DNA of 64,000 nucleotides from Amoeboaphelidium occidentale (taxonomy: Eukaryota): the NCBI GenBank assembly GCA_023515795.1, contig JALGPX010000014.1:248001-312000 (forward strand). Direction: 5' to 3'. How positions within the stretch are numbered: position 1 is the first letter of the stretch; each line of letters starts with the position of its first letter. Below the pieces are notes generated by a model. The model was not told the origin of the DNA. It saw nothing but the letters and a program-made list of their open reading frames with translations, and ran no database searches. Positions 12-25,761 of this stretch are shown piece after piece. Position numbers and translations under genes: made by a program.

Positions 12-803
12 AGTCAAGTACGGAACTTTGAAGGACTGCGGGCAATGCGATTTAATTGTCATTACAGCTGGCGCAAAGCAACGCGAGGGAGAGACCAGAG
101 TTCAGTTAATCGATAGGAACCATGCCATTCTGAAGTCCGTTATCAATGGTATGAAACCTCTGAAGCCATCTGCAATTCTTCTACTGGTATCGAACCCGGT
201 CGACGTTTTGGCTTACTTTGCTCAAAAACTGTCTGGTTTACCTCCTAACCAAGTCTTTGGTTCTGGAACATTCCTTGATACCGCGAGATTAAGAAGAGCT
301 ATTGCGCACAAAGTCGGTGTTGCGGATACCGCAGTTCATGCTTATGTTTTGGGAGAGCATGGCGACTCTCAATTCTGTGCTTGGTCTTCTGCTCATATCG
401 GGTAAAGAGTTGCTTTATGAAACGTATTGACTCTGTTAGAAATGTTCCACTGTTGAGTTTCGATGACTTCAAGGATGAGAATGAACTTAATGATATTGCA
501 ACAAAAACCAAGAATAAGGCGTACGATATCATTAAGGCTAAAGGTGCTACTTATTTTGGCATTGCTGCTGTTGTTAGCTCTATCGCGGAAGCTGTTTTCA
601 TGGATCAGAGACACATTCGTCCTTTGAGCGTTTATGATGATAACTTGAAAGTTTGCATCAGCCTTCCTGCAGTTGTTGGAAGAAATGGTATTGAGCGTAT
701 CATTCGAATTCCTTTGAACGAGAAGGAATCTGCTGCATTACAGTCGAGTGCTAATGATCTTCGTAAGATTATTGATCAGTACGAAGAAAAACTTCCTCAA
801 TGA
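12..803 (+). CDS. LDH: L-lactate dehydrogenase (5'-partial; 38-nt intron 402-439)
   Basis: ORFs 28..405 and 381..803 join via GT-AG intron 402-439 (HIG|NVPL). Motifs ITAGAKQREGETR (Gln specificity loop of LDH), SNPVD, GTFLDTAR, GEHGDS, KGATYFGI. Confidence 0.93.
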
Positions 804-976
804 GACGTTCCAATGGTTGAACTAAATAAAGCGATAACGCATTTTGGTATTTCTTAATAGTTTGTTTCACGTTAATCTTGGCTTTTATGTTAGTGTTACA
901 AAATGTCCCTTTTGCAGATCTGAAACGAAACTTGGCCTCGTGATTCGATATTTATGACACTTTCAATTTCCGAACA

Positions 977-2635
977 ATGAGTTACGCTTCCGCATATAAA
1001 AACTTCATGATATCCCAGAAAGCCGAAACCAAACAAGGGGCACAGGATACTGATGCGATATCACTCAAGTTTAAGCAGGGCTCGATATTCTATGAGCCGC
1101 AACATGGCGAGGCTGCTGGTCCGAAGAAAGCTGAGTATCACGCTGAGGAACACAACACAAAAGACCCTTTAGTGGATCATTCCAAATCGAAAAACAGTCT
1201 CTTCTTTCAGGATTTCTCAGTATATCCAAATTCAAGGAAGGATACTACGTTGGATAATCCGGTATCATATGATCATGCTCCTGCTGCTTCGAAGAATTCG
1301 ATATTCGATACTCCGGTCAGCGCAGGTCTAAGCAAGAATTCTATCTTCAGTATTGATACTACTCCTGCATCAAGTTTAGCAGTCAAAACAGCCTCTCTTC
1401 CTGTTGTTATCACGCCTATCCAGTCTCCGACCGATGGAGTCACATCAGCATCGTTCACTCCAAGATATCAGGATGTTATTAATCAAGAAAAGTCATTTCA
1501 GCTTCCTTTTGTTCCAACTAAGAAGAATATGCTGGGAGAAGGAAGGTTTGGAACGGTTTATCGTGTTTCAGATGGAAAGCACGATTTCGCTGTTAAGAAA
1601 GTATCTCCTGACCCAGAAGCTCAGACAAATGGCTTAGTGGAAGCGTTCGTTTTGAGAAAGATACAAAGCTGGTCATCTTATGAAAGAACTAAGAACATTG
1701 TTAGGTTTTATGGTGTTCAGGTTGAAGAGCAGGGAAAAGGTGACAGTGAAAGTTGTCCTTCCTTTATGCTGGTATTGGAGTTTTGTCCATGCGGTGCATT
1801 GTCAGAATATGCGCTAAATTATCCCTCTGAATGTGGTCGGAGGATGTGGATCAAATGGTGCAAGCAGATTGCCCAAGCTGTTGCGTTTTTACACAGAGGC
1901 TGCAATGACGAAAAAGTCATCCATGGCGACTTAAAGCCGCACAATGTTTTGCTTAATGAGAATCTAGATGCTAAACTGGCTGATTTTGGTAATGCAAGTT
2001 TTATCGAGAATGCCACTGTCTTCACTGAGCTTAGCGATGGATTTGGAAAAGGAACAACTGCGTATTCAGCGCCCGAACTTTTGAATCCACCTTATTCATT
2101 TACTTTCTCTTCGGATATTTACTCTCTGGGCGCATCTTTTTACTTTCTATTAACAGGCCGTGAACCATTTGCTGATATTAGGAACCCATCCTTGCAATTG
2201 TGGTACATACAGAAGGGCTTTATCGACAGCGGTGCAAATCCTTTATCTCCTACTTCTGGCAGCTCATCTGACAAGCAGCTCATGCCCACAAGATCATTGC
2301 AGGTGGTTAGAAGAGATGTCACTGCTCAAAAAGAACCAACAAGCCCGACTCCAAGCTCTGATATTCCTTTGCTTAAATTTTTGAATGGGGAAGTTTTGCA
2401 TTCTTTAAGCGTTCATGATAGTAAAGCATCAACGCTTATATCCGGACTTATTAAGTCTTGCACGCACAAGAGAGCCGAATCTAGGCCATCTATCGACGAG
2501 GTACTATATTTGCTGGATCAGATAGACGACAGTCTTATTCCTGGAGATGGATTTAGTGCAGATAATCGCATGACTACTATCAAGGAAAGTGTCGTGGAAA
2601 AAGTTGCAGGAGGAAGACGAGTGACACTTAAATGA
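977..2635 (+). CDS. Ser/Thr protein kinase with low-complexity N-terminus
   Basis: LGEGRFGTV, AVK, HGDLKPHN, DFG, GTTAYSAPE, SDIYSLG, RP; single 552-aa ORF. Confidence 0.9.
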   Translation: MSYASAYKNFMISQKAETKQGAQDTDAISLKFKQGSIFYEPQHGEAAGPKKAEYHAEEHNTKDPLVDHSKSKNSLFFQDFSVYPNSRKDTTLDNPVSYDHAPAASKNSIFDTPVSAGLSKNSIFSIDTTPASSLAVKTASLPVVITPIQSPTDGVTSASFTPRYQDVINQEKSFQLPFVPTKKNMLGEGRFGTVYRVSDGKHDFAVKKVSPDPEAQTNGLVEAFVLRKIQSWSSYERTKNIVRFYGVQVEEQGKGDSESCPSFMLVLEFCPCGALSEYALNYPSECGRRMWIKWCKQIAQAVAFLHRGCNDEKVIHGDLKPHNVLLNENLDAKLADFGNASFIENATVFTELSDGFGKGTTAYSAPELLNPPYSFTFSSDIYSLGASFYFLLTGREPFADIRNPSLQLWYIQKGFIDSGANPLSPTSGSSSDKQLMPTRSLQVVRRDVTAQKEPTSPTPSSDIPLLKFLNGEVLHSLSVHDSKASTLISGLIKSCTHKRAESRPSIDEVLYLLDQIDDSLIPGDGFSADNRMTTIKESVVEKVAGGRRVTLK

Positions 2636-2654
2636 TCTTCAATAGAACAGTTTT

Positions 2655-4322
2655 TCACTTATATTTCTCTTGTAGTAGCCTTAACTGTTTCCATGCCAGA
2701 AATTGTTGAAACAGGGGATCTTTCACACCAATCGATGCTCCAGCGTCCTTAGATATTTCTATATCAGGCGTAAAATCTTGATTTAATCCCAAAGCGGCCT
2801 CATAAAGTATTCGAAGTTTTGCGTCACTATTAGGATTAACGATATTATCCACCTGTGAGTAAAAATGACAAAGGCCAACCAACCACTAAACATAAGTCTG
2901 TAAAGTAATAATAAGTTACATCTTTTGCATCTTCAGGAGTTGTTCCCGAGGCTTCGGCATCTGGAACATCAAGATTTCGTTTCAGGCTGGTCGAAGCGGG
3001 CCCATAGTGCTTCTTAATCTCCGTTGGTGCTGTGACAAACTCGGAAACGGTCTTTTCCTCATTATTCTTTTGTATGAAGTTAAGTTTTATGCTTGTTTCG
3101 GGTAGTCTGTAGTTGACTCGCCGCGATCTTTCAAATGCAAGATTATTAGGATACGGTTCTAGAATTATTTCTACATCTCCATCATTCTTAAAAGCAGGAT
3201 CAGTAACTAAGACATCGATGGTTTGCCCAGCCACTTTACGCTTCTTAACCAACAGATCATCCGCGTGCGCAGGACATGTCCATTTCTTGTTCGCAGGCAC
3301 TGGAGCTGTAAGCGGCGGGCTTAAGCAGTCAAGATGCCAAAATAAAGGACAAGAATCGCAAGATATTATCGGGCCATTGAGCCCGGTGCCTCCACACTTA
3401 TGACAATGTATCGGCTTCCCTTCCTCTGTGACAAGGCGGAATAGTTCTGTATCGGTGCGCCTACAAATCAATTCTCTCGACTTGTCTAACATTACCCTTT
3501 GTTAGCGACTTTAGATTCACTGGTATCGACGTAAACACCAGAATCATTCCAGCTTACTAAGAATGATGAGTAAAAGCCGCATTAAAGCCTACCTCCTTCG
3601 AAATACTTCTTAATTCCTTCGGGCAAGCTAAAGCTGACAGGATTCATTCGTTCAATGTTCATCAGAAGCTCTTTAAATGGGCCCTTATACGAGTAACTTG
3701 AAGGCGGGAATCTTTCTGAGCGGCAGGATTTACAGTACCATTTCTCCAGGGATCCAACCTTTTCCCTGTTCACTGGCGGCTCCGCGCATAGGAAATGAAA
3801 CGAGTTGGGGCAACCTTCACAGCACACAACATCACCAGAGTATCTTGGACCACAGAACTCACAGTACTCATTGTTGACGAATGAATTATCCCTCCCAGTG
3901 AGCGTGTTCGCTCGTGATCTTGTCTCCCGTCTAAGAAATAAGTTAACCATGCTCACGATCATTTACATTATCCCAGAAGAAGTAGTACTCCCGTGCGCTA
4001 CCGAATTATAATCCTCCCGAGCACTTTCTGCAGCCTTCGATTGCATTGATTCTAACAATGTCGATAAATCACCGTCCCGCTCAGGATCCCAAGGGCTTGG
4101 GCTCTTCATATCTTGAGCATGAATTTTCTGTACCACTTCATCCAAGTTCCGTATCGCTGCATTCTTATCTTCATCATCTATTTTAGTTGCTTGACTATAT
4201 CTTTTGAGCCTTGGGCTTGATTTCACTGACATTTGCGTATCTACTGCCTCCGTGCCTTCTTCTCTAGTAATATCGTGCCTGGTAAAAAACGGGTTCTCTA
4301 TATTATTTAAATCTACTTCCAT
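2655..4322 (-). CDS. Double PHD-finger chromatin protein (Rco1/PHF12-like, Rpd3S/Sin3 subunit); 5 exons
   Basis: PHD1 CEFC..CCEGCPNSFHFLC..WYCKSC and PHD2 CHKC..CDSCPLFWHLDC..WTCPAH, plus NPxSFxLP and LPExSIKLNFI segments. Frames join via introns 3931-3966, 3557-3592, 3461-3495, 2886-2919 (34-36 nt). Confidence 0.8.
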
Positions 4323-15636: not shown

Positions 15637-16347
15637 ATTTCCTACGCTGGATCCAAAAATATCGCCGCCTAAACGTGTGCAAGTAAAGGTATGCTTCTAA
15701 TCTCGTGCTGTATTAATAGTTTAGACTGGTTTGTATCCTGTGATTTGATTTCTAACCATTTAGCGTGTGTCAATTGCAGAAAGGCCTGCAAGAAGTGCGA
15801 AATGCAGCGTCCATGTTGTCGCTGTGTTCGTCTTGGTTTGCAAGATTCTTGTGTCGATTACGTTCGCAAGATTAGACAAAAGGGGCTGAAACGCGGCCCT
15901 TATAGAAAAGACAAAGGGATCATGGTGTCTTATGATGCTTCCTTTTGTTTGCATAGTGGTGTTGATACTTCTGGTTCTGTTGTGTGTGCTCCTGTGGTTT
16001 CCTGTGATACGGCAAATGTTACCGTCGAGCCTTTGGTTTTCCGTGTGGTTGGTAAGGAATTGAGCAGTTTCAGAAATGATGGTGATGCTTCTTCGGATGA
16101 TAACAATTCTGCTTCCTTCAGCCTCAGCACGCCGGAAGATTCCCCTGTTATTCCGTTTGCTCAAAGTTTCGGTGTTGATTTGACTGCTGGCGAAGGCGTA
16201 GAGATTTCCATGCGCCACAATGGCAACTTGGACAGCACATGCGATGACTTCTGCGGTTTCTTCACGGACGATTTCTGGAAAATTCAGTGCGTTACCGTAG
16301 TGAACACAGAAGAATTTGCTAGTGATTTTGGGCTATGGCAACTTTGA
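15637..16347 (+). CDS. Zn(II)2Cys6 fungal-type transcription factor (start unresolved; micro-exon)
   Basis: CVNCRKACKKCEMQRPCCRCVRLGLQDSC..RQKGLKRGPY; upstream exon encodes PPKRVQVK, joined via introns 15689-15724 and 15729-15763. Confidence 0.8.
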
Positions 16348-16434
16348 CACAAATAAACGCGATTAAAGTCTTCGCGTCCGGACTTCTCCATAGCAAACAA
16401 CAGACTTCGTCAATGCATCGTTTGAAACATCGAT

Positions 16435-16478
16435 GAAATTTATCTGCAGATAAACAGTAATATCTTCAGATAAATTTC
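16435..16478. repeat. Inverted repeat / palindrome
   Basis: GAAATTTATCTGCAGATA (16435-16452) vs TATCTTCAGATAAATTTC (16461-16478): 17/18 complementary, 8-nt loop; embedded perfect 16-bp palindrome TTTATCTGCAGATAAA (16439-16454). Confidence 0.85.
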
Positions 16479-16590
16479 CTTTTCAGTAAAGGGAATATCG
16501 GCTGATCTATTCTCAATGAGTCTTGGATGTTCTTTGAATTCACAAAAGCATTGACTTCACGCTGAAAGTGATTCGAAACTCAAACCGAAC

Positions 16591-16920
16591 ATGATGTATG
16601 AAGTTCATGGTAAAGTGATACTGACAGAGAAAATGAAACCGAATGTGATCAAGTTGAAGAAAGAGTTGGTAAAGAAGAAGAAGTATTGACAGCTTTTTCA
16701 AAATACTGCCAGAAGCTCTTATCCTCTCTACAAGATCCGATAATGAAGGAACTAGAATTCTGAAGTGCAAAGACTACAAGACCTCAACTGGGCTCGATAT
16801 CATGGCTAAAAAGGATGTTAAAGCGGCTCATTACATGGCAAATATCGCGATTTAAGTGAACGGAGAAAAAGGGACTTAAAATGCGTCCTTTTCTTTGGCA
16901 ACCTTTACTTGTAGCGTAAC
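16591..16920 (+). pseudogene. Possible decayed C-terminal fragment of a second Fanzor/TnpB-like gene
   Basis: Across frameshifts: KPNVIKLKKELVKK / SKYCQK / RILKCKDYKT..KKDVKAAHYMANIA / MRPFLW, in the same order as the Fanzor PxxxLxxxL, TSKxC, RxCxxC..NRDxNAAxNI and RP motifs. Confidence 0.35.
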
Positions 16921-17120
16921 AGATGAAAAAAGAAGCTGGAACCGAAATGAAAGAATAGAATTTTTGCAACTTTTGTGATCGGTTCGAGTCTTTTTCATAN
17001 NTGCGTCTTTTTCTTTGGCAAGCCTTTACTTGTAGCGTAACAGATAAAAAAAGAAGCTGGAACCGAAATGAAAGAATAGAATTTTTGCAACTTTTGTGAT
17101 CGGTTCGAGTCTTTTTCATA
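16882..17120. repeat. Gap-flanking overlap duplication (118/119 bp, 3 differences) around NN at 17000-17001
   Basis: 16882-16999 repeated at 17002-17120 with C/T, +G and G/A differences; scaffolding artefact joining non-identical copies. Confidence 0.85.
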
Positions 17121-17127
17121 TTCCGAT

Positions 17128-19487
17128 ATGAAGAAGAAACGCAAACTACCTGATGATGACGTCGAAGAATATGATCCTGCTGCTGAGGATGATGTTGCTG
17201 CTGAGCCCATAGATGAGCCTGAAGAAGAAGAAGAGGATGATATGACCCCTATCCCAATGACGTCAATTGTGACTAGAAAGACTGGACTGAACTCCTTGCT
17301 CCCTAATGAAATACTGAGGACGAAGATAAGAGATTTGGTTGATGCAATGAATTTCATTCGCTATCATGGGTCCCGACTCCTTCATCTATATGTAGTTCAG
17401 ATGTGCTCAGAAGGACGTGATTTGGGGTTGTTGACCTGTAGTTATGGAGGTATTCTACGACACTTCTTTGTGGCAGTCTGTTATAATTCTGGCAACATCC
17501 ATGCCAAACGTCTTGATAATAATGTTGCCCCTCTGGCTGAAATTTATAGAAATACGGCTTTTGAATATGGTATAGAGTTTCCTTTGAATACTGGCATATC
17601 CAGCACTTTGAACAATATGGTGGCGTCTTATGAGACCAATTTAATGAATTAGATTACAACTACAACTGTTGGTAGAGTTCGGAGGTGGTTAATGCACTTG
17701 TTGGAACTGGAATATCCGGATTGTTTCAAAGTCAAGAAACGGAGTACATCCGGGGCCAATTACTGTATTTCATCGTTGAGTGCACTTTTGGAAGAGAATA
17801 ATGAGTTGCCGGAGCTTCCAGATATTCTAGAAAAGTTTGCAAAGAAACATGATAGGGCGAGAATCATGAGGGCTCTTAGAACAGTGCATATAATTTTAGT
17901 GGCCGAAACAGAAGAGAAAAAACTTTCTTTAGAAAAGGAATTTTTTGAAGGAATACTGGTACAAGTTTTTTTACCTACAGTATCACATTCTTGAACACTT
18001 TACGAAGTACTCCGAGGCGGATGCGCAAGCTAGATTGGAAGAGAATCGGCGTGGCAAAGGTTTAAGACTTTTCACCATGGTGCCGTTGGCTGATATCAAG
18101 ACTTCTCATGCGTTTTTCGACAGCAGTGGTCTTTCCGAAGTAGTTCACATGGCGTTCGAAGACGAATCATTCGTTGCTCCTCCAAATCATCCAAGAAATC
18201 TAAATGTTACATCTCGAAAGGCGCTTTTTACAGGCAAAAAGTCGAGGGTGCCGTTGTGGAATTGGGCTGTTGAGTTAAAATGTGTAAAACATACGAATCT
18301 GGACTTCAACTACTCATTTAGTACTGATGGGGTAAGTGTGTCTGTTCACTTTAAAAAGCCTGGTTTCAAGGAACGACTTAATGACAAAGGGTTTCTGTGG
18401 AGTAACCAGATGAAGTATTCACCGATTGGCATTGAAAATCGGGTCGTTGTGGGTGTTGACCCTGGAAGAATTGATTTGGTTGTTTGCAGTGATGGCTCAA
18501 GGAAGAGTTTTGGTTGTTCAGGAAAAGAATGGCAAGAGATCGCTGGCTTTAGGTATCAAAGATGGCGTCAGAAAAGTTGGTCAGATAAGAACGATAATAT
18601 CCAANNNNAAACATAAGAATCTGGACTTCAACTACTCATTTAGTACTGATGGGCTAAGTGTGTCTGTTCACTTTAAAAAGCCTGGTTTCAAGGAACGACT
18701 TAATGACACAGGGTTTTTGTGGAGTAACCAGATGAAGTATTCACCAATTGCGATTGAAAATCGGGTTGTTGTGGGTGTTGACCCTGGTAGAATTGATTTG
18801 GTTGTTTGCAGTGATGGCTCAAGAAAGAGTTTTGGTTGTTCAGGAAAAGAATGGCAAGAGATCGCTGGCTTTAGGTATCAAAGATGGCGTCAGAAAAGTT
18901 GGTCAGATAAGAACGATAATATCCAAACAATTATTAGGGATATGCATTCAGCAAAGGTTAGAAAGGTCGAAGTCTATCTAACGTATCTGAACTACATTCT
19001 AAGACACTACGCTTCTCTTGCTGATTTTTACGGTTCTCAAAGGTGGAGGCAGCTAAGAAGAAAAACGGATATTATGAAAACCAAAACCTTTGATATTGTG
19101 TGCAGAAGAATTGCTGGAAACAACTTTGAAAGAGTTGTTGCTTATGGCTCTGGTGGATTTTCCAGCTGTTCGCGTGGGCATGCACCGTTACGGGTGAAGG
19201 GTTTGTTTAAAGCGTTGAAACAGAAGAATGCTCTTGTTCGTCTGGTTTGGGAACATCGTACAAGCAAACTTTGCTGTCAGTGTGAAGGCGAGTTACCTGA
19301 AGGCAAAAGATGGCAGGTGAGAATTTGCAAGACTTGCAAAATACACTGGAATCGTGATTTCAACGCTGCTAACAATATAAGGAAGATTCTGAAACACATG
19401 GAGGAGAACAGTGGAGATAGACCGTGCAATTTTCTAACGAAGAAACAACAAAAGAGCAAGGGAAACGACTTAATTGTCGGTGGATAA
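17128..19487 (+). pseudogene. Fanzor1-family RNA-guided endonuclease (TnpB/Cas12-like), disrupted in this assembly; reconstructed ~678 aa
   Basis: RuvC-I VVVGVDPG (D at 18458 and 18780), VVAYGSGGF, RuvC-II VWEHRTSK (E at 19251), Zn finger CCQC..CKTC, RuvC-III WNRDFNAANNI (D at 19356), FSTDGxSVSV, terminal RP. In-frame TAG at 17650-17652, extra T in T6 run 17941-17946, gap duplication 18287-18926. Confidence 0.92.
18287..18926. repeat. Gap-flanking overlap duplication (318 bp, 10 substitutions) around NNNN at 18605-18608
   Basis: 18287-18604 repeated at 18609-18926; 5 synonymous codon changes and 4 amino-acid changes (T/K, V/L, K/T, G/A). Confidence 0.9.
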
Positions 19488-19535
19488 CCTTGGCTAGCTG
19501 GAGTAAAGCATTATTATCGAAAATCATTAAATTTC
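19445..19535 (+). ncRNA. Candidate Fanzor omegaRNA (scaffold plus guide) overlapping the ORF 3' end; limits approximate
   Basis: Expected position for TnpB/Fanzor guide RNAs. Nested stems AGC-AAGG (19455-19461)/CCTT-g-GCT (19488-19495) and CGAC (19466-19469)/GTCG (19476-19479), then a small GCT/AGC hairpin (19497-19509). Confidence 0.4.
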
Positions 19536-19668
19536 ACGTTGAAGGAGCTATTTGGTTCATCTATTTGGTTTCGGACTCGTATAATTGATATGATTTAATA
19601 AACGCTTTCTAGACTGAGTACTATCATGCTTCGTTAAGATTTCCATTTAACATACTTTAAAGTAAGTG

Positions 19669-21312
19669 ATGATTAGAAGTAGTGCGCGGAAAGTTCTTGT
19701 AACGACGCCAATTTTCTATGCCAATGCAGGTATCGTTCCAAGAAAGACAATCTTACTTAATTGCGGTAGATCCTCATATAGGGCACCTGACCAGTGCAGT
19801 TTACGCGGATATCTTGAATAGATGGAACTTATTGTCTAAGCGGGAATCGTTTATGCTAACAGGAATGGACGAGCACGGTGTAAAGATTCAACAAGCAGCA
19901 GCATTATCGGGCATGAATCCAAAACAGAAGGTCGACAATGAAGCATTAAAGTTCAAAGAGTTGTTCGACACCGCTGGCATCGCTTATTCGCGGTTTATAC
20001 GCACGACTGATGCTGATCATGCAGCTAATGTCCAAGATATCTGGAGAACACTAATGGACAATGGTTACATTTATAAGGGAAAGCATTCTGGTTGGTATTG
20101 TGTTCAGGATGAGTGTTTTTATGGAGAACAAGAGGTTCATGATATAATGAATAGTTTCGGTCTTCAGAAAGTTGCCAAGGAAAGTGGTCGCAGTGTTGAG
20201 TGGATACAAGAGGATAATTACATGTTCGCCCTGTCAGGGTTTAAAGAAAAGATAAAGCAATGGCTTAATTCGAATCCTGACTTGATACATCCAAAAGAGA
20301 GACGCGCAGACGTATTTCGATTGCTTGACAGCAACTCTTTTGGTGATGTTTCTGTTTCAAGACCTAAAGCACGACAATTCTGGGGCATTCCAGTACCTCA
20401 TGATGAGAATCATACTGTTTATGTTTGGTTTGATGCGTTATTGAATTATCTTACTGCATCAACTGGGTTGTCAAAAGATGGTCACCTTTCTATGAACCAT
20501 GTCATTGGAAAAGACATATTGCGCTTTCACACTATTTTATGGCCAGCTGTATTGATGGCTGCTGATATACCCCTTCCAGAACGAATAATTATTCATTCTC
20601 ACTGGACTGTGAATAACATGAAGATGTCCAAGTCGATCGGAAATGTGTTTCATCCTGATGCGCTCATAAGGAAGTACGGACAAGACGCTGTAAGATATTT
20701 CATTGCAAGAGACGCTGGATTAAAAGAAGATTCCGATTATTCAGAGGATCTTCTTCGAATGAGGTATCAAGTGGAACTAGCAGATCGTTTAGGTAAAACC
20801 CTATAATATTATCAGACTTTTAAACTGTAGGAAATCTACTCTCAAGATGTTTTGGTCGCGCTTTAAACAAGAAAGCTGCAATGCCTTCATTCACAAAGGA
20901 TATTCTTGGAGATCTGGATACGGAAATGATAAACAACATAAACTCGGTTTCAAGAAGAGTTCAGAAAGAAATTGAAAGAGGAGATATCTGTGAGGCATTT
21001 GAGCCTGTTGTTCAATTGATAAATCAGACAAACAAATACCTTCAGATTAATGAACCATGGAAACTTGTTAAATCGAAAGATGAGAATGATTTACAAAAGG
21101 CCAAGAATGTTCTTTATATAAGCCTTGAGGCTCTTAGAGTGAGTGGATTATTATTACAACCTGTTATGCCCTCGTCTATGGACAAGCTCTTAAACAAGTT
21201 GGCAATCTCTCCAGAGCACAGATACATTGATAACGCGGTGTTTAATGATAAAGCTGAACGAAAAATGGATAGCTCTCCTCTGATATTATTCCAGCGACTT
21301 AAAATTGAATAG
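19669..21312 (+). CDS. MSM1: Methionyl-tRNA synthetase, mitochondrial type
   Basis: TTPIFYAN|DPHIGH (intron 19730-19769), GMDEHG, YVWFDAL, IGKDILRFH, KMSKS; second intron 20793-20830; C-terminal anticodon-binding domain. Confidence 0.92.
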
Positions 21313-24300: not shown

Positions 24301-25761
24301 AACTTGATGCTAGGAAAGATCCAGATGACTACAGTTCGTACCATATTTATTCGCAGTTAACAGAATCATTCAAGAAGCTCTTGCTGTCTGAGGATGATCT
24401 AAAGATCAGGAACGCGATTGTTGTTCTTGATAAATTGACAACCAACTTCCCACTGTTTAAAGATTTTGGAATGACTTTGATCAAAACAATGGATACTGTT
24501 TACGATCATCTTATTAAAGAAGGAAAAGACGACTTGAAAGTGATGGCTAACAGATACAAAGGACAGCTCTCAGTTTCCGAGAGCTCGCTCCTTAGTAGCA
24601 TTTACCAAAAGCCGAATTTCGTTGATGTTTCTGTGACGGCAAATCAAGAAGATGATAAATCTGTTTTAAGTGAGTATGAAGAAGGTATGATTGATATTCC
24701 GTCGGCAAATGGAACTAAGAATGACTCTGATACTAAGGAGAAAGCACAGGAGTCGAAGCGACCTGAAGTGAAGAAAGAAGATACACAGTCAAGTCGTAAA
24801 CCTGACCAAGCAAGAAAAGATCCAGTAGCAGTTGGCAATAATGACAAAAAACAGACGCCTTACAGGACCGATGATAATTACCGTTATAGAAAAGATAATT
24901 TGCCAGATAGAAAAGGTTTCGATAAAGGCAAACCATATGATTCCGAACGTCGACCTTCACCTCGTTTCGGTGGCGCTTATAATGATGCTGCTAGTCGATC
25001 TCCACGTGTCCCAAGTGATAACAGGAATGCAAAAGATCAAGTCAGCAAAGTACCGCGAGATGCACCTAAAGATAATCGAGATGACAACTACTACCGGGCA
25101 ACACCATCCTCTTCTAAGCCTGCAGATAGAAACGATCAAGAAAGGGATTATAAAGGAAGTTCAAGTGCCGAAACAAGTCAGAAGCGACCACATGACAGAA
25201 CAGATGGAACAAACGCTGACTTGAACAGAAATCATTACGTCGAAGCATGGGTTGATAATAGTGGTAACAGCAAAAAGAGAGCTAAAGTAGAAAGCAGTGC
25301 GTCTCCAAAGAAGCCAAATGTTTCTTATGACGAACCGCGTTATGTAGAAAGAAGAGATAATCGCGGAAGCAGTGATTACAACAAGTCTAAAGAAACATTT
25401 CAAATAAGCAGATCTAGTGGCGCTAAACAAGGACAAGACGATGAAGCAAGAGCAGAAAAGAAGTTTGAATTTCGTCAAGGTAGGTACCGAAGAGTTATTC
25501 CTTCAGCTATGGATGCTTTGAACAACATCCAGAGATCCAATTATGATAACCGACCAAGAGGATCCANNNNNNNNNNNNNNNNNNNNNGAAGCAAGAGCAG
25601 AAAAGAAGTTTGAATTTCGTCAAGGTAGGTACCGGAGAGTTATTCCTTCAGCTATGGATGCTTTGAACAACATCCAGAGATCCAATTATGATAACCGACC
25701 AAGAGGATCCAACCCAGAAAATCCACGCGAAACAAAAAAGTACGATAATAGGCGAAGATAA
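21342..25761 (+). CDS. THO2: THO complex subunit 2
   Basis: INTSLLYKQQKYNLLQEESEGYSKL, LIGYFDLDPNRVAD, QIEAYDNLI, IRNAIVVL; charged tail. True 3' end reached after removing the gap overlap (25444-25565 repeated at 25588-25709). Confidence 0.92.

Follow-up and report, generated by a model that had tools for sequence, protein, structure and literature searches.

A Fanzor1 gene copy within a probably non-autonomous, polymorphic transposon of the aphelid Amoeboaphelidium occidentale

Introduction

Fanzor proteins are defined by a sequence expression that combines a DPG motif, a Glu, a four-cysteine (C4) zinc finger and an Asp (PMC10711439), and a further Fanzor trait is that Gly or Pro takes the place of the canonical RuvC-II Glu (PMC10530073). 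The traits of Fanzor1 are a TDG motif in the WED domain, an enlarged REC domain and a length of ~600-800 aa (PMC10711439). The TAMs of the three solved Fanzor1s measure 3-4 nt (CATA, TTAA and ATN; PMC11423790). Fanzor1 scaffolds include target-site duplications (TSDs), and the guides reach ~15 nt beyond them, as in the reRNAs of SfAV Fanzor1 (PMC10711439). Homing by omega systems has also been described (PMC13565253).

The described proteins closest to the one analysed here are SpuFz1 of Spizellomyces punctatus (PDB 8gkh, 9ceu-9cez), PpFz1 and GtFz1, which are like it in the fold of both halves, the TDG and DPG motifs, the alternative Glu, the C4 finger and the size class; SpuFz1 is 16-20% identical to it. 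The protein is encoded in a stretch of 64,000 nucleotides from Amoeboaphelidium occidentale, a parasite of algae, hereafter the window, in which a first-pass annotation made from the letters alone had read a Fanzor1-type nuclease locus broken into four ORF fragments. The annotation missed the transposon that surrounds the gene. The new part of the locus is its anatomy, and we found no earlier description of the transposon family that carries the gene.

Results

All four ORF fragments, the TAG stop, the T6 run and the 318-bp gap overlap were found at the positions annotated for them, and the window ORFs that make up the locus end at 17652 (TAG), 17994, 18616 and 19487. The start of the fourth fragment had to be moved: the annotated start at 18426 belongs to a reading that crosses the N run out of frame, and the frame of the Fanzor starts at 18609. 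In this frame lie VGVDPG (18771-18788), VVAYGSG (19134-19154), WEHRTS (19248-19265), CCQC (19272-19283), CKTC (19326-19337) and WNRDF (19347-19361). A recount across the pieces (Table 1) gave 271+221+186 = 678 codons, the length annotated for the merged reading, and the RuvC catalytic triad and the four-Cys zinc finger are intact, again as annotated. The basic N-terminus of the first piece could serve as a candidate NLS. A separate observation concerns the region around the start codon, where a sliding scan of 17052-17200 (40 shuffles) found a strong RNA fold (z -4.6 at 17052-17151). A sigma-70 promoter scan, a model unsuited to a eukaryote, found none.

Table 1. Features of the Fanzor1 element and its gene copy, in window coordinates
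Feature	Positions	Strand	Remarks
Left 9-bp direct repeat	16352..16360	+	Starts with AATAAA; a Zn2Cys6 gene has its stop 4 nt before it
Mobile element as assembled	16361..19596	+	3,236 bp, of which 443 bp are N and gap-overlap artefact
Subterminal left-end hairpin	16435..16478	.	18-nt arms, 94% complementary; 75 nt inside the end
119-bp overlap	16882..17120	+	Duplicated around NN 17000-17001, inside the same element; scaffolding artefact
Fanzor1 piece 1	17128..17652	+	Basic N-terminus, acidic linker, start of WED/REC; ends at in-frame TAG 17650-17652
Fanzor1 piece 2 (REC)	17653..17946	+	Frame shifted by T6 run 17941-17946
Fanzor1 piece 3 (REC/WED, TDG, RuvC-I DPG)	17945..18604	+	
318-bp overlap	18287..18926	+	Copies 18287-18604 and 18609-18926 flank N4 18605-18608; 10 mismatches
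Fanzor1 piece 4	18609..19487	+	TDG 18645-18653; RuvC-I Asp 18780-18782; Gly at canonical RuvC-II 19146-19148; private Arg for conserved Pro 19191-19193; alternative Glu 19251-19253; RuvC-III Asp 19356-19358; C4 zinc finger
Predicted omegaRNA scaffold	19506..19605	+	Long imperfect hairpin 19521-19596, up to the element end
Right 9-bp direct repeat	19597..19605	+	
Predicted ~15-nt guide, right flank	19606..19620	+	By analogy to SfAV Fanzor1 reRNAs

Two of the checks proposed in the first-pass annotation, an HMM search and a structure search, agreed on the identity of the protein. A profile of nine relatives matched SpuFz1 (3e-39), PpFz1 (1e-34) and GtFz1 (3e-27), and among 25 matches the next best, of TnpB/Cas12-like kind, came at 7e-5 or weaker; the last piece also matches Pfam PF07282 above the cut-off (E 9e-9). 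In Foldseek searches with AlphaFold2 models both halves were closest to Fanzor1 structures. The model of the C-terminal piece (pLDDT 83.7) matched SpuFz (5e-12) and PpFz (4e-9) best, with the mimivirus Fanzor2 in 13th place, and for the N-half, modelled on the sister protein P0005 (pLDDT 70.5), all 7 matches at E<=0.001 were Fanzor1 entries. The protein fits the published Fanzor expression as DPG-x154-E-x6-CxxC-x14-CxxC-x6-D (spacings 154, 6, 14 and 6), and the canonical RuvC-II Gly, 35 residues before the alternative Glu, is invariant in 9 of 9 alignment rows. As for the Fanzor1 traits, the TDG is invariant, the N-half fold resembles Fanzor1 entries only, and the reading has 678 codons. The setting is that of a eukaryotic non-IS607 transposon, with empty sites, a direct repeat, fungal-type neighbours and no recombinase match in the element.

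Profile, motifs and the fold of both halves thus bear out the Fanzor1 identity, and the early-diverging fungal lineage proposed for the DNA is borne out by the host, an aphelid. A bacterial TnpB, or chimerism at the junctions, is ruled out by the profile, the N-half fold and the junction contigs. Intact copies of this Fanzor1 are likely RNA-guided DNA nucleases. At E<=1e-30 the profile retrieves 1,844 cluster representatives, and the 144 new relatives among the best 150 have a median length of 632 aa. On viral contigs, 20 loci out of 494 candidates hold distant relatives of 23-45% identity; at four viral contigs (L001-L004) the identity is 24-27% over ~250 aa. In the JGI metagenomes the left-end pattern had no match, and protein alignment confirmed none of 169 candidates.

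The claim of novelty fails, because the protein has already been catalogued. Gene callers had been expected to miss the locus; NCBI nevertheless lists a model for it (MP638_005688/KAI3661251.1, 728 aa), to which the C-terminal piece is 100% identical. Nor is the family as uncharacterised as was supposed: exactly this protein belongs to the 'Curated Fanzor set' in Tables S2 and S3 of PMC10711439, where its Table S3 row carries neither DNA positions nor notes. In the same supplement 84 rows name A. occidentale and 112 name Amoeboaphelidium. Outside Repbase and subscription journals we found no paper whose main text names Fanzor together with Amoeboaphelidium or aphelids, and no description of the element or of the activity of this Fanzor1; the two text files among the supplements of PMC10530073 hold no mention that we could find.

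The 728-aa model bridges the stop and the frameshift with GT-AG 'introns' of 33 and 49 nt and retains the gap duplication. Since the residues skipped in this way are conserved in sister copies, the two introns are false, and real introns at the two lesions are ruled out. Users of the published model therefore need to correct it for two false introns and the gap duplication, the natural reading being ~678 aa. Stop-codon reassignment, which is known from the congener A. protococcarum, is likewise ruled out as the cause of TAG 17650-17652. Under the standard code the window holds 24 stop-free frames of at least 300 aa (15,430 codons), of which 5 end in TAG, so TAG is a true stop, and not a sense codon, in A. 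occidentale.

At NCBI the family of the window copy (family A) comprises seven models: P0001, P0005, P0006, P0007, P0018, P0020 and P0021. Three of them span the TAG position (P0005-P0007, 70-75% identical to the 728-aa model) and all three have Tyr there; five span the T run (P0005-P0007, P0018 and P0021) and all five are in frame across it. In the sequencing runs one T is absent at 17941 in X1 (797 of 797 depth), X4 (38 of 38) and part of X3 (87 of 150), and in none of 3 in X2. Three further observations concern related models. A second, more distant multicopy Fanzor1 family of A. occidentale (P0002, P0014-P0017, P0019, P0023, P0027 and P0028) is ~37-54% identical to family A and has a different N-terminus and the same WEH-T-S motif before the zinc finger. 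P0007 (816 aa) has ~470 aa of unrelated host-like sequence, without Pfam match, fused to the Fanzor N-half, probably through insertion next to or into a gene, or through a wrong model. P0008 (416 aa), a 49-50% identical relative with triad and zinc finger intact, comes from a Logan contig that, with 3267 nt, is roughly as long as the element.

Not all differences at the locus need be biological. All three gaps of the window show overlaps (119, 318 and 124 bp), the gap inside a host gene included, and we therefore regard the overlaps as scaffolding artefacts and tandem duplication as ruled out. In the third gap (N 25567-25587) the duplicated 124 bp fall at the 3' end of the host THOC2 gene, where the end of the 1434-aa THOC2 ORF is probably an artefact. 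The two copies of the 318-bp overlap differ at 10 of 318 nt, equal to 4 residues, so the contigs that flank this gap may derive from different copies of the element.

We sorted by hand, into private and shared, the 31 coding rows contained in 40 of 744 variants. Thirteen of the 31 sites are private to the window, every covering run differing from it; with 3 synonymous and 10 missense changes they are near the 27% synonymous changes expected under neutrality. The other 18 are polymorphic within the family, and 13 of these are synonymous (p 1e-4 against the 27% expected; Fisher test of private against shared, p 0.011). One private change places an Arg where 118 of 143 relatives have Pro. The two single-base repairs once thought sufficient to restore the gene are therefore not enough, given an overlap with 10 mismatches and 10 private missense sites, the Arg at the conserved Pro among them. 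Judged by these sequences, the family looks conserved and the window copy looks either decayed or mis-assembled, no contig tying the interior of the element to its flanks. We retrieved no full-length intact copy: the A. occidentale models that we found are all either incomplete or burdened with duplications, and none of the contigs reaches from one end of the element to the other.

If mis-assembly accounts for the damage, the lesions and private substitutions would stem from faulty assembly or from collapsed copies merged into a mosaic, while the true copy at the locus would be intact. The middle contig is indeed bounded by two gap overlaps; X1 matches the flanks exactly, but no long exact interior piece occurs among the X1 pieces listed; all X1 depth at 17941 is without the extra T; and the private sites, 3 synonymous to 10 nonsynonymous, are distributed as random errors would be. 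Neutral decay of a true pseudogene, however, yields the same ratio, and contigs lose rare variants and the filter omits records. On balance we consider an intact copy at this locus somewhat unlikely. Fragmentary models could also mean that the whole family is extinct, with every copy decaying and no nuclease made, and all A. occidentale models retrieved are indeed fragmentary. Collapsed repeats give fragmentation as well, though, and both the insertion polymorphism between samples and the synonymous excess argue for a living family, which makes extinction very improbable.

The element that carries the gene is present in many copies, since X1 depth is ~104-107 in the flanks and ~670-3650 within 16335-19674, the duplicated bin excepted, values that are not to be read as a copy number. 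Depth is higher at both ends of the element than in the ORF. Empty sites occur in X2, X3 and X4, three of the four runs compared (three studies): their contigs join 16351 to 19597, with 9 letters that fit both sides, and their flanks are ~2-3% different from the window. The X3 flank runs on into 19606+ after 16360. The flank contigs of X1 show 0 differences over 968 and 954 nt and extend 107 and 50 nt into the element. This exact match, with entry at both ends of the element, indicates that the junctions are real. The insertion is thus present or absent depending on the sample, among samples ~2-3% apart. The 9-bp direct repeat is likely a target-site duplication, of 8 bp if the element starts at 16360; the length of 9 bp rests on a single site, no second pair of junctions having been seen among the junction contigs.

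Comparison of the element ends revealed no terminal inverted repeats (TIRs), and no transposase or recombinase was found in the element, whose short 5' ORFs have no Pfam match. The left-end hairpin has a strong DNA fold (z -4.76; none of 200 shuffles did as well) and is a candidate end-recognition or promoter element, and the right end shows no DNA fold (z +0.8 and +1.6). CGGAC occurs near both ends in the same orientation (16379-16383, ~16400-16405 and 19572-19576; the second, at ~16400-16405, is restored in other copies), and these motifs are candidate transposase-binding repeats. Several contigs have the left hairpin in common within 16387-16497 and diverge before 16435 or after 16487, which suggests that this left-end module is shared by related families or by short derivatives.

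The left repeat starts with AATAAA, the poly(A) signal. Of 31 long window ORFs, 11 have AATAAA in the interval -10..+60 around their stop, the insertion site being one of these; the corresponding counts are 2 of 31 upstream of the first ATG (p 0.011) and 5 of 31 for the opposite strand, and among random windows the share is 3%. Being enriched at the stop codons of the window, the motif behaves like a host poly(A) signal. A comparison of left junctions covered 24 of 51 loose ends. The alignment begins at 16351 for five X1 contigs whose flanks are unrelated (agreement 0.54), at 16353 for one and at 16347 for one X4 contig. The very end of one X4 flank is AATAAA, out of register by one base and 5 nt after a TAA, and two contigs, each present in X3 as well as in X4, begin at 16365 and have no AATAAA in register. 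Judged indirectly, from alignment starts and a single readable flank, AATAAA at the left junction seems common to several other copies, and host gene ends with their AATAAA signals may be preferred insertion sites of the element. A literature search for DNA transposons that prefer AATAAA poly(A) signals brought up nothing relevant.

The link to AATAAA would be incidental if the carrier were a Mutator/MuDR-like DDE element without TIRs, with an ordinary 9-bp TSD and a loose AT-rich preference. Intergenic DNA is AT-rich and genic insertions are purged, and the two X3/X4 junctions at 16365, without AATAAA in register, would fit such an element. The described MuDR-type Fanzor1 elements have TIRs, however, and the A. 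occidentale element has none; nor does a loose preference readily account for five X1 contigs at the same base, the further contigs at 16353 and 16347 and the X4 flank ending in AATAAA. We hold this origin to be possible but doubtful.

Alternatively, the enzyme that moves the carrier might be a Crypton-like tyrosine recombinase or a Helitron2- or Replitron-like HUH enzyme, the repeat being a recombination core or a duplication of variable length, as in MCi-2, MCi-5 and CRe-1/2/3. This would agree with the lack of TIRs and the strong subterminal hairpin, and with a fixed AT-rich hexamer followed by 1-3 variable bases, which is reminiscent of MCi-2 (ATAATT+N4-5; PMC3627910); CryptonS elements with the same pentamer at both termini (PMC13565253) and Replitrons with short terminal direct repeats offer further parallels. 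Against it, the element has no fragment of a recombinase or Rep protein, its right end has no DNA fold, and on the left the bases after AATAAA are the ones that the empty target has, as follows directly from a plain TSD. A mobiliser of this second kind also remains a minority view, and between MuDR-like and Crypton/HUH-like enzymes the choice is about even.

At the right end, the last 77 nt (19520-19596) fold into a single G-U-rich hairpin (z -3.0, 1 in 300 shuffles), the window for this test having been picked after the fold was viewed; the first two windows folded gave z -0.11 and -0.30, and wider ones -0.1 to -2.5. Bases 19511-19515 are predicted to pair with the right repeat (probability ~0.65-0.8), which would extend the scaffold hairpin. 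An Rfam search with the omegaRNA candidate gave no matches at E<=1. By analogy to known reRNAs, the fold is suggestive of an omegaRNA scaffold that contains the right repeat. If all of the right repeat belongs to the scaffold, repeat and guide would stand together at the filled right junction just as at the empty site, and the filled allele should be cut as well, which speaks against the reading favoured below; with described TAMs of only 3-4 nt, this calls for a TAM that extends past the repeat or for another guard against self-cleavage.

Discussion

Our results are probably best explained by a non-autonomous Fanzor1 transposon that is moved in trans, with the RNP of intact copies re-cutting empty alleles and repair restoring the insertion. 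This explanation builds on the Fanzor1 sequence and fold, the boundaries, the 9-bp repeat, the empty alleles, the open sister copies and the synonymous excess, and to these it adds expression, guide, TAM, cleavage, homing and a mobilising enzyme, all of which we infer. A transposase or recombinase encoded elsewhere would move the element and duplicate 8-9 bp of an AATAAA-containing target. A transcript through the right end would yield the omegaRNA, its scaffold including the right repeat, as TSDs are included in described scaffolds (PMC10711439), and its guide being the next ~15 nt of flank. The Fanzor RNP could then cut empty alleles, on the sister chromatid after excision or on the homolog, beside an A-rich TAM derived from the target, and repair from the filled allele would restore or spread the insertion, a form of homing comparable to that described in PMC13565253. 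As assembled, the window copy would make no full-length protein, but protein from intact copies could load its omegaRNA.

A bolder version, which we offer as a speculation and consider unlikely as a whole, is that this TIR-less Fanzor1 family targets host poly(A) signals: it would insert after stop codons in the sense of the host gene, duplicate AATAAA and rely on a long TAM or another guard. The left repeat would preserve the 3' end of the host gene and supply the core of the TAM, and the right repeat would be built into the terminal stem of the omegaRNA. Host 3'-end cleavage downstream of the right repeat could set the length of the guide, and a long TAM would read the base 5' of the repeat, which is A at targets and T at the element end. 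If so, the insertions would occupy the free space of a gene-dense genome, just behind the stop codons.

The Fanzor1 protein itself adds little, being catalogued already and part of a large family, and aphelid genomes are rich in candidate Fanzors, to judge by the 112 Amoeboaphelidium rows of one supplement. The case is tractable because a single site has natural filled and empty alleles, junctions are many and the host can be cultured. Two questions become approachable. One is the mobilisation of Fanzor1 elements that lack TIRs and have long, motif-based duplications, which has stood unclassified since MCi-2; the other is how cutting at its own right junction is avoided by a Fanzor1 with a TSD longer than the TAM.

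Set beside the Fanzor1 transposons described in PMC3627910, the A. occidentale element differs from SPu-1, which has 33-bp TIRs and a TA TSD, in having no TIR and a repeat of 8-9 bp. The MuDR-type elements ROr-4, PBl-3 as well as MCi-4 are alike in carrying only Fanzor; their TSD is 9 bp long, the length of the repeat at the one site here unless the element starts at 16360 (8 bp), and their MuDR-like TIRs are absent here. Cryptons have a tyrosine recombinase gene, and there is none in the window copy; Helitron2 elements have hairpins at both ends and asymmetric TIRs, whereas here a hairpin is found only on the left, 75 nt inside the end. Closest are MCi-2 and MCi-5, the Fanzor1 elements of Mucor circinelloides (PMC3627910), which share with the window element the lack of TIRs, a TSD on a fixed AT-rich hexamer, fuzzy 5' ends and an unclassified mechanism. 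By description, MCi-5 carries a Harbinger transposase and MCi-2 a partial Crypton transposase, with TSDs of 11-12 bp on an ATAATT core, whereas the element described here carries no transposase and has 8-9 bp on AATAAA.
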